This document shows positions 49,973-53,008 of a stretch of DNA of 64,000 nt, piece by piece; within the stretch, counting starts at the first letter, position 1, and every line of letters begins with the position of its first letter. The DNA lies in the NCBI RefSeq assembly GCF_002854065.1, contig NZ_CP024147.1; one strand, given 5' to 3'. The DNA is from Escherichia coli (GTDB lineage: Bacteria > Pseudomonadota > Gammaproteobacteria > Enterobacterales > Enterobacteriaceae). The notes beneath the pieces are model-generated. The model saw nothing but the letters and a program-made list of their open reading frames with translations. It had not been told where the DNA came from and did not search any database. The position numbers and the translations under genes were made by a program.

Positions 49973-50048
49973 GGGTCGTTAGCTCAGTTGGTAGAGCAGT
50001 TGACTTTTAATCAATTGGTCGCAGGTTCGAATCCTGCACGACCCACCA
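49973..50048 (+). tRNA. lysT: tRNA-Lys (anticodon UUU)
   Basis: 76-nt GGGTCGTTAGCTCAGTTGGTAGAGC…CTTTTAATC…GGTTCGAATCCTGCACGACCCACCA. Confidence 0.97.
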
Positions 50049-50083
50049 CTAACCTAGTTAGTTGTAGTATCCAGCGTAGTATC

Positions 50084-50159
50084 GGGTGATTAGCTCAGCT
50101 GGGAGAGCACCTCCCTTACAAGGAGGGGGTCGGCGGTTCGATCCCGTCATCACCCACCA
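50084..50159 (+). tRNA. valT: tRNA-Val (anticodon UAC)
   Basis: 76-nt GGGTGATTAGCTCAGCTGGGAGAGC…CCTTACAAGG…GGTTCGATCCCGTCATCACCCACCA. Confidence 0.97.
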
Positions 50160-50161
50160 CC

Positions 50162-50237
50162 GGGTCGTTAGCTCAGTTGGTAGAGCAGTTGACTTTTAAT
50201 CAATTGGTCGCAGGTTCGAATCCTGCACGACCCACCA
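50162..50237 (+). tRNA. lysW: tRNA-Lys (anticodon UUU)
   Basis: Identical to the first tRNA-Lys copy. Confidence 0.97.
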
Positions 50238-50288
50238 CTAATTACGGTGGGTTCGGTGGAAGTAGTTTGTAGTATCCAGCGCAGTATC

Positions 50289-50364
50289 GGGTGATTAGCT
50301 CAGCTGGGAGAGCACCTCCCTTACAAGGAGGGGGTCGGCGGTTCGAACCCGTCATCACCCACCA
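50289..50364 (+). tRNA. valZ: tRNA-Val (anticodon UAC)
   Basis: As valT, with a T-arm variant (GGTTCGAACCC). Confidence 0.97.
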
Positions 50365-50367
50365 CTC

Positions 50368-50443
50368 GGGTCGTTAGCTCAGTTGGTAGAGCAGTTGACT
50401 TTTAATCAATTGGTCGCAGGTTCGAATCCTGCACGACCCACCA
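50368..50443 (+). tRNA. lysY: tRNA-Lys (anticodon UUU)
   Basis: Identical tRNA-Lys copy. Confidence 0.97.
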
Positions 50444-50589
50444 GTTTTAACATCAAACTCAGATGTTAAGCGTGAAGGATAACGTTGCGCCAGCAACGGC
50501 CCGTAGGGCGAGCGAAGCGAGTCATCCTGCACGACCCACCAATCTTAAAGATTGGCCCCGAGTAAAAATCTTTCAGGTAACACCCGTAT

Positions 50590-50665
50590 GGGTCGTTAGC
50601 TCAGTTGGTAGAGCAGTTGACTTTTAATCAATTGGTCGCAGGTTCGAATCCTGCACGACCCACCA
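50590..50665 (+). tRNA. lysZ: tRNA-Lys (anticodon UUU)
   Basis: Identical tRNA-Lys copy. Confidence 0.97.
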
Positions 50666-50698
50666 TCCTGAATGATTAAAGCAGCATAATCCCGCAAG

Positions 50699-50774
50699 GG
50701 GTCGTTAGCTCAGTTGGTAGAGCAGTTGACTTTTAATCAATTGGTCGCAGGTTCGAATCCTGCACGACCCACCA
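50699..50774 (+). tRNA. lysQ: tRNA-Lys (anticodon UUU)
   Basis: Identical tRNA-Lys copy, followed by a terminator. Confidence 0.97.
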
Positions 50775-50778
50775 ATGT

Positions 50779-50808
50779 AAAAAAGCGCCCTAAAGGCGCT
50801 TTTTTGCT
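50779..50808 (+). terminator. Rho-independent terminator of the tRNA operon
   Basis: aaaaaagcgccctaaaggcgcttttttgct; a second copy lies at 50935–50965. Confidence 0.8.
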
Positions 50809-51117
50809 ATCTGCGATACTCAAAGATTCGAACCTGCAGCAGGTTTGAGTTGAGCGTAGCGAAACAACGGAGCCGCTCGCGGCGACGGCCCGAAGGGCGA
50901 GCGAAGCGAGTCATCCTGCACGACCCACCAATGTAAAAAAGCGCCCTAAAGGCGCTTTTTTGCTATTCAGGCATCTCTCAATTTCAATTCTTGACCCTGA
51001 TGACATACTTCGCGCTTGCTGCGTAAACAACTTTACGTCGGAGGAATAAGACGCAAAGTGTGGCATTCGGCATCTCATACGTAATTCGAGTGACTTTTCC
51101 CCACCATTCGACTATCT

Positions 51118-51135
51118 TGTTTAGCATATAAAACA
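51118..51135. promoter_or_regulatory. Putative NadR operator upstream of nadA
   Basis: Palindrome tgtttagcatataaaaca (TGTTTA-N6-TAAACA type). Confidence 0.5.
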
Positions 51136-51207
51136 AATTACACCGATAACAGCGAATATCACGCTAATGTCGGTTTTAACGTTAAGCTTGTAAAACGAGA
51201 TGGTAAG

Positions 51208-52251
51208 ATGAGCGTGATGTTTGATCCAGACACGGCGATTTATCCTTTCCCCCCGAAGCCGACGCCGTTAAGCATTGATGAAAAAGCGTATTACCGCGAG
51301 AAGATAAAACGTCTGCTAAAAGAACGTAATGCGGTGATGGTTGCCCACTACTATACCGATCCCGAAATTCAACAACTGGCAGAAGAAACCGGTGGTTGTA
51401 TTTCTGATTCTCTGGAAATGGCGCGCTTCGGTGCAAAGCATCCCGCTTCTACGTTGTTAGTCGCTGGGGTGAGATTTATGGGAGAAACCGCCAAAATTCT
51501 CAGTCCGGAAAAAACAATTCTGATGCCGACACTTCAGGCTGAGTGTTCACTGGATCTCGGCTGCCCTGTTGAAGAATTTAACGCATTTTGCGATGCCCAT
51601 CCCGATCGTACTGTCGTCGTCTACGCCAACACTTCTGCTGCGGTAAAAGCGCGCGCAGATTGGGTGGTAACTTCAAGCGTTGCCGTCGAACTTATTGATC
51701 ATCTTGATAGTTTGGGTGAAAAAATCATCTGGGCACCCGACAAACATCTGGGGCGTTACGTGCAAAAACAGACGGGCGCAGACATTTTATGCTGGCAGGG
51801 TGCTTGCATTGTGCATGATGAATTTAAGACTCAGGCGTTAACCCGCTTGCAAGAAGAATACCCGGATGCTGCCATACTGGTGCATCCAGAATCACCACAA
51901 GCTATTGTAGATATGGCTGATGCGGTCGGTTCCACCAGTCAACTGATCGCTGCTGCAAAAACATTGCCACATCAGCGGCTTATCGTGGCAACCGATCGGG
52001 GCATTTTCTACAAAATGCAGCAGGCGGTGCCAGATAAAGAGTTACTGGAAGCACCAACCGCGGGTGAGGGCGCAACCTGCCGCAGCTGCGCGCATTGTCC
52101 GTGGATGGCCATGAATGGCCTTCAGGCTATCGCTGAGGCATTAGAACAGGAAGGAAGTAATCACGAGGTTCATGTTGATGAGAGGCTGCGAGAGAGGGCG
52201 CTGGTGCCGCTCAATCGTATGCTGGATTTTGCGGCTACACTACGTGGATAA
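51208..52251 (+). CDS. nadA: Quinolinate synthase A
   Basis: 347-aa ORF; N-terminus [18 protein letters not shown]; synteny with pnuC. Confidence 0.95.
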
Positions 52252-52288: not shown

Positions 52289-53008
52289 ATGGATTTTTTT
52301 AGTGTGCAGAATATCCTGGTACATATACCAATAGGGGCAGGCGGTTATGATCTCTCATGGATCGAAGCGGTAGGCACGATCGCCGGGTTGCTGTGTATTG
52401 GCCTTGCCAGTCTGGAGAAGATCAGCAACTACTTCTTTGGCCTGATCAACGTCACCTTGTTTGGCATTATTTTCTTTCAGATTCAGCTGTATGCCAGCCT
52501 GCTATTACAGGTGTTTTTCTTTGCCGCGAATATTTACGGTTGGTATGCGTGGTCGCGACAAACCAGTCAGAACGAGGCGGAGTTGAAAATTCGCTGGTTA
52601 CCATTGCCGAAGGCATTAACCTGGCTGGCGGTTTGTGTCATTGCTATTGGTCTGATGACGGTATTTATCAATCCGGTGTTTGCATTTTTGACCCGCGTGG
52701 CAGTCATCATCATGCAAGCATTAGGATTACAGGTTGCGATGCCTGAACTACAACCGGACGCTTTCCCGTTCTGGGATTCTTGCATGATGGTGTTATCTAT
52801 CGTGGCAATGATTCTGATGACGCGTAAATATGTGGAAAACTGGCTGTTGTGGGTGATTATTAACGTGATTAGCGTCGTTATTTTTGCACTTCAGGGCGTT
52901 TACGCCATGTCTCTGGAGTACATCATCCTGACCTTTATTGCGCTCAACGGCAGCCGGATGTGGATCAACAGCGCACGCGAAAGAGGCTCACGCGCGCTGT
53001 CCCATTAA
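52289..53008 (+). CDS. pnuC: Nicotinamide riboside transporter PnuC
   Basis: 239-aa membrane ORF downstream of nadA. Confidence 0.95.

Follow-up and report, generated by a model that had tools for sequence, protein, structure and literature searches.

Identification of the site

The 18-bp sequence at positions 51118 to 51135 of the 64-kb stretch of DNA analysed here (referred to below as the window) is, with a probability of about 95%, the NadR operator at the nadA-pnuC promoter of Escherichia coli. The site is already well known, and it is neither a new member nor a variant of the NadR box. It is the same element as the nadA-pnuC NAD box of Salmonella and E. coli, with which it agrees in sequence (that of K-12), gene context, consensus and taxonomic range. 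The additions made here are modest, being a phylogenetic footprint at base resolution and a promoter model (a -35 element, a -10 element and a box from -8 to +10) that agrees with published maps of transcription start sites (TSSs). Nothing new is learnt about NadR itself, and the value of the case is as a positive control in which a genuine operator with experimental support was recognised from sequence alone. A NadR box upstream of nadA was what the first-pass annotation had called, and the consensus, the motif of the regulon, the position relative to the TSS, the conservation and the published function all agree with that call.

The window is E. coli chromosome, a 521-nt query over the site having matches, at up to 99.8% identity, in 5425 of the 5426 complete E. 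coli genomes. The gene order is pal, cpoB, seven Lys/Val tRNA genes, nadA, pnuC and a convergent zitB. The features needed at this point are as follows.

51118..51135, strand not assigned (.), NadR operator (NAD box) TGTTTAGCATATAAAACA, spanning about -8 to +10 from the main TSS of nadA-pnuC
51208..52251, + strand, nadA (quinolinate synthase), first gene of the operon, a 347-aa ORF matching Pfam PF02445 NadA with E = 2.9e-107 and annotated as nadA in E. coli genomes
52289..53008, + strand, pnuC (nicotinamide riboside transporter), second gene of the operon, matching Pfam NMN_transporter with E = 4.8e-50
49973-50774, tRNA genes lysT-valT-lysW-valZ-lysY-lysZ-lysQ

The 18-mer tgtttagcatataaaaca is read exactly at 51118-51135 on the + strand, which confirms the position given for a NadR-type near-palindrome in the first-pass annotation. 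The distance given there, about 70 bp upstream of the nadA start, is also close to the measured one, with 72 nt between the end of the 18-mer and the ATG at 51208. In K-12 the 18-mer is unchanged and lies equally far from nadA. Compared with TGTTTA-N6-TAAACA, the published NadR box (PMC2330245, PMC2330246), 11 of the 12 specified positions agree and the sole mismatch is an A for a T at box position 13 (51130). The sequence is an imperfect palindrome with 5-bp arms, TGTTT and AAACA, and a central A-T pair.

This 18-mer is the only match to the consensus with one mismatch or fewer in the 64-kb window. Shuffled sequences gave an expectation of 0.20 such matches, with at least one match in 18 of 100 shuffles, and when two mismatches were allowed the window had 6 matches against 2.07 expected. 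The window-wide count is by itself not significant and proves little, so the case for a NadR site rests on position and conservation.

Conservation of the box

A scan with the NadA protein of species-representative genomes gave 80 loci, 24 from Enterobacterales and 56 from other Gammaproteobacteria including Vibrio, Shewanella, Aeromonas, Pseudoalteromonas, Acinetobacter and Alcanivorax. The box was searched for in the 300 nt upstream of each nadA, and E. coli was aligned with the 24 other Enterobacterales to give 25 sequences. All 24 of the other Enterobacterales had an aligned box, at 65-77 nt from the ATG, with one mismatch or fewer in 20 of them and two mismatches in 4. These four in-register boxes with two mismatches were found by alignment and belong to Serratia, Pectobacterium and two Rahnella. 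For Pectobacterium and Rahnella the best hits of the consensus scan lay 137-147 nt upstream; these were rejected in favour of the in-register boxes from the alignment. Upstream of the 56 nadA genes from outside the Enterobacterales, no box with one mismatch or fewer was found (0/56) and the modal best score was 4 mismatches.

The information per alignment column is near its 2-bit maximum from 51113 to 51135 and is at background from 51137. Within the box, 14 of the 18 positions are invariant in the 25 Enterobacterales and 2 more are nearly so. The HTH domain of NadR is reported to be confined to enterobacteria (PMC2330245, PMC2330246) and the HTH-bearing NadR to Enterobacterales, no other member of the regulon being as well conserved as nadA-pnuC (PMC5343134). 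The taxonomic range of the box mirrors the range of HTH-NadR given in these three papers. The comparative evidence is decisive for a NadR box. Conservation of a box that overlaps the TSS could partly reflect constraint on the promoter or on the initial transcribed sequence and not contacts with NadR.

The A at position 13 (51130) is the only departure of the nadA box from the published consensus and is common to 21 of the 25 Enterobacterales. A T at this position, giving a perfect box, was found only in two Photorhabdus species. Position 13 lies at about +5 and hence the conserved A is not explained by the -10 element.

Within E. coli, the 53-nt promoter and operator region is identical in 4541 of the 5421 matching genomes, and the remaining 880 differ by one or two bases. 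Two of the variants were examined. One alters box position 8, a C/T position that also varies between genera, and the other has a change in the -35/-10 spacer together with one base outside the box.

Promoter and transcription start

The footprint extends upstream of the box into elements that can be read as a promoter.

51090..51095, + strand, putative -35 hexamer GTGACT, with GA (51092-93) in 25/25 and C (51094) in 23/25 sequences
51113..51118, + strand, -10 hexamer TATCTT, with TAT(C/T)TT invariant or nearly so in the 25 orthologous regions, 7-8 nt upstream of the mapped TSS
51125..51126, + strand, main nadA-pnuC transcription start, mapped in K-12 and carried over by identical sequence

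We infer that GTGACT is the -35 element from its spacing and from the TSS. The spacer between the two hexamers is 17 nt, constant in length and variable in sequence, and the alignment is gapless between both elements in all 25 sequences. Position 51108, within this otherwise variable spacer, is a T in 25/25 sequences and is preceded by two W positions; this T does not belong to a TGn motif of an extended -10 element. The -10 hexamer and the box share one base, 51118, with which the former ends and the latter begins. The -35 and -10 elements derived from the footprint predict a start near 51125.

Two published cap-based datasets for K-12 place the main start at this point. Cappable-seq (PMC4782308) gave a start at U00096.2 781226 with a score of 136.3, which is window position 51126 (the ATG is at 781308), with neighbouring calls at 781238 (score 1.6) and 781275 (score 3.8). 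SMRT-Cappable-seq (PMC6131387) gave a full-length transcript at NC_000913.3 782002-784184, starting at window position 51125 and spanning b0750|b0751, i.e. nadA and pnuC. The K-12 sequence is identical over 51088-51140 and the K-12 TSS data can therefore be transferred to the window. In both cap-based datasets the TSS is at the centre of the box, so that, counted from 51125 or 51126, the box extends from about -8 to +10. A start at U00096.2 781272 with 5 reads, which is window position 51172, was reported by Kim et al. 2012 (PMC3415461). This start is minor, the two cap-enrichment datasets favouring 51125/51126.

A strict sigma-70 scan of 50700-51300 found 0 promoters. This negative result is uninformative because the real promoter, with 4/6 matches in each hexamer or 8/12 overall, scores one below the threshold of 9 of 12. 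A TATAAA within the box (51127-32) was considered as a -10 element, which would explain the conserved A at position 13. It was rejected because there is no conserved -35 element at a suitable spacing and the mapped TSS lies upstream of it.

The published Cappable-seq (score 30.6) and SMRT-Cappable-seq data also contain a transcript of pnuC only, from an internal start at about 52247-52248 at the nadA stop codon. A -10-like hexamer, TACACT, is found near this start at 52236-52241. No NadR box with two mismatches or fewer was found near the internal start and some pnuC expression may therefore escape control by NadR.

Other boxes of the NAD regulon in K-12

The first-pass annotation had proposed that the site be compared with annotated NadR sites. 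In K-12, nadB has a perfect box, TGTTTAGTAAATTAAACA, whose end is separated from the ATG by 6 nt, and pncB has a box with one mismatch, CGTTTAGTACAATAAACA, about 30 nt upstream of the start codon. The nadA, nadB and pncB boxes have the extended half-site TGTTTAG(C/T)A in common. Thus the nadB and pncB boxes have the same 18-bp inverted repeat and the same half-site as the nadA box and lie, as it does, upstream of genes for NAD biosynthesis or salvage. Their placement differs, the nadA box covering about -8 to +10 and the pncB box about +12 to +29 from a TSS with 180 reads, while that of nadB is close to the ATG. Given that the pncB box is outside the core promoter, the NadR motif is not simply a promoter element.

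This bears on a different reading of the conserved block, namely that it is only a core promoter, a discriminator and an initial transcribed region, and that its resemblance to a NadR box is incidental. The overlap of the box with the last base of the -10 hexamer and with the TSS does mean that promoter constraints touch some of the same bases, and the number of consensus matches in the window as a whole lacks significance when taken alone. Sigma-70 promoters need no invariant sequence from +1 to +10, and the invariance observed there is not a requirement of such a promoter. In addition the 18-bp motif, with its TGTTTAG(C/T)A half-site, recurs at nadB and at pncB, where it is out of reach of the core promoter, and it is missing exactly in the lineages reported to be without HTH-NadR. 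The operon is also de-repressed in nadR mutants (PMC9645810). Taken together these observations make an incidental resemblance very improbable and argue for a NadR operator.

At nadB a second box, TGTTTAGCAACTGTAACA, with 2 mismatches (positions 1823-1840 of the K-12 nadB locus L003) has its centre 74 bp upstream of that of the perfect box, and an isolated TGTTTA half-site (L003 1858-1863) is present at the expected place of the -35 element. The arrangement points to repression of nadB from several sites or by looping, in contrast to nadA with its single box. The surroundings of nadR in K-12 contain no box at two mismatches or fewer, and autoregulation of nadR in E. coli is therefore not supported.

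NadR and repression of the operon

Several enterobacterial operators are AT-rich inverted repeats of 18 bp with a 6-bp centre. A different regulator with a similar repeat, for instance one of the TyrR type (TGTAAA-N6-TTTACA), could on this ground be supposed to bind the site instead of NadR. Of the 12 specified positions, 5 are mismatched when the site is compared with the TyrR box and 1 when it is compared with the NadR box. The motif is found at nadA, nadB and pncB together, that is to say in the NAD regulon, and its taxonomic range is the same as that of NadR. In Salmonella, moreover, EMSA and ChIP put NadR on the nadA-pnuC promoter (PMC12421817). Binding of another regulator in place of NadR is thus extremely improbable.

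NadR of K-12 has an N-terminal HTH_3 domain, a CTP_transf_like domain (cytidylyltransferase-like; adenylyltransferase) and an AAA_28 kinase domain. The nadR gene is outside the 64-kb window. The 195 nt coding for the HTH are present in 5424 of 5426 complete E. coli genomes, and from this near-universal presence it is very likely that the source genome has nadR. The primary footprinting papers on NadR are reportedly those of Penfound & Foster (1999) and Grose et al. (2005).

The binding of NadR to this operator, the logic of its effectors and the de-repression in nadR mutants are taken from the literature. In the published model NadR is a dimer with NAD as co-repressor (PMC2330245, PMC2330246). 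Salmonella NadR binds the nadA-pnuC promoter as judged by EMSA and ChIP-qPCR, its binding is antagonised by ATP and by c-di-GMP and restored by NAD, and deletion of nadR raises nadA and pnuC mRNA 8- to 10-fold (PMC12421817). In lines of the E. coli long-term evolution experiment, all of which carry mutations in nadR, nadA-pnuC, nadB and pncB are up-regulated (PMC9645810).

A mechanism can be proposed on this basis. The NadR dimer would sit on the box, at about -8 to +10, by way of its N-terminal HTH domains, and would cover the stretch in which RNA polymerase has to melt and load the DNA. At ample NAD, the NadR-NAD complex would bind and block initiation of nadA, for de novo quinolinate synthesis, and of pnuC, for nicotinamide riboside uptake. 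When NAD is low and ATP is in the nucleotide site, or when c-di-GMP is bound, NadR would leave and the operon would be transcribed. Since the box overlaps the -10 hexamer and spans the TSS, repression is probably by steric occlusion of the promoter.

Through this site enterobacteria shut off the de novo synthesis of NAD and the uptake of nicotinamide riboside at sufficient NAD, and it is the target that is lost by nadR mutations, for which the E. coli long-term evolution experiment has selected time and again (PMC9645810). NiaR, NrtR, NadQ and the nadA-motif NAD+ riboswitch have the same role, feedback control of nadA or of genes for NAD synthesis. They are unrelated proteins or RNAs, with other operators and in other taxa than the NadR box.

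The leader of the nadA-pnuC transcript

The minimum free energy structure downstream of the box contains one stem-loop.

51142..51174, + strand, 5' leader stem-loop (ACCGAUAACAGCG...CGCUAAUGUCGGU), at about +17 to +49

In E. coli the 50 nt that follow the box give z = -4.1. Hairpins like this one, with stems that are compensatory in part, are found in E. albertii, Citrobacter, Enterobacter sp. Ag1 and Erwinia psidii. Each leader was folded by itself, the sequence alignment having lost the register of the covarying stem, and in the leaders of Yersinia, Serratia and Photorhabdus folded singly in this way no clear hairpin was found. An Rfam E-value scan of the nadA leader gave no known RNA family, riboswitches included.

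The weak secondary TSS calls at 51172-51175 (5 reads of Kim et al.; Cappable-seq score 3.8) fall within the 3' arm of this hairpin. The ends at 51172-51175 could come from a minor promoter, from a processing site or from noise. A second, minor promoter may escape occlusion, as from a start at 51172 the box would cover -54 to -37.

These observations allow the reading that NadR control is real but partial, with the leader stem-loop (51142-51174), the minor start (about 51172-51175) or both forming a second layer independent of NadR and acting through mRNA stability, through translation or as a constitutive basal promoter. The z-score of -4.1 in E. coli, the occurrence in close relatives of similar hairpins whose stems are partly compensatory, and the weak TSS calls at about 51172 and 51175 are consistent with it. 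The hairpin, however, is not kept across the Enterobacterales, where the mean z is -1.3 and 8 of 25 leaders are below -1.5. The downstream TSS signals, for their part, fall short of the main one by a factor of about 35 and, lying within the 3' arm, are possibly processing products or noise, and the leader is without a match to an Rfam family. A second layer of this kind, whichever of its forms is chosen, is therefore unlikely.

It is similarly doubtful, though conceivable, that the conserved A at position 13 and the stem-loop at 51142-51174 are functional tuning elements. If they were, the weakened right half-site could set the NAD threshold of nadA-pnuC apart from that of nadB with its perfect box, and the 5' hairpin could act without NadR on the stability of the mRNA or on its translation. 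As far as the literature searched shows, neither tuning by position 13 nor control by the hairpin has been described.

The spacer between the tRNA genes and nadA

The first-pass annotation had described an AT-rich stretch of about 400 bp between the tRNA array and nadA. The length is borne out by a spacer of 433 nt between the last tRNA gene, which ends at 50774, and nadA. Its overall GC content of 46.2% is unremarkable against a window mean of 51.3% (sd 6.1%, 433-nt windows), and the description as AT-rich stands only for the nadA-proximal 241 nt (41.1% GC) and for the promoter and leader (37.5% GC). The first 192 nt of the spacer (50775-50966) have 52.6% GC and consist of a terminator, an RtT repeat and a terminator of the tRNA operon.

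Two RtT elements (Rfam RF00391) are present in and after the Lys/Val tRNA array, at 50375-50541 (54.4 bits) and at 50805-50930 (47.1 bits), the gathering score being 45. They contain copies of the tRNA-Lys 3' end (ATCCTGCACGACCCACCAAT). The second element is labelled in RefSeq as 'RtT sRNA, processed from tyrT transcript', yet it is located in the lysT operon. An exact 54-nt direct repeat (50757-50810 and 50913-50966) lies either side of this second element and comprises the tRNA-Lys 3' end and the terminator hairpin AAAAAAGCGCCCTAAAGGCGCTTTTTT. It follows that the tRNA operon carries the same terminator twice, at a distance of 156 nt.
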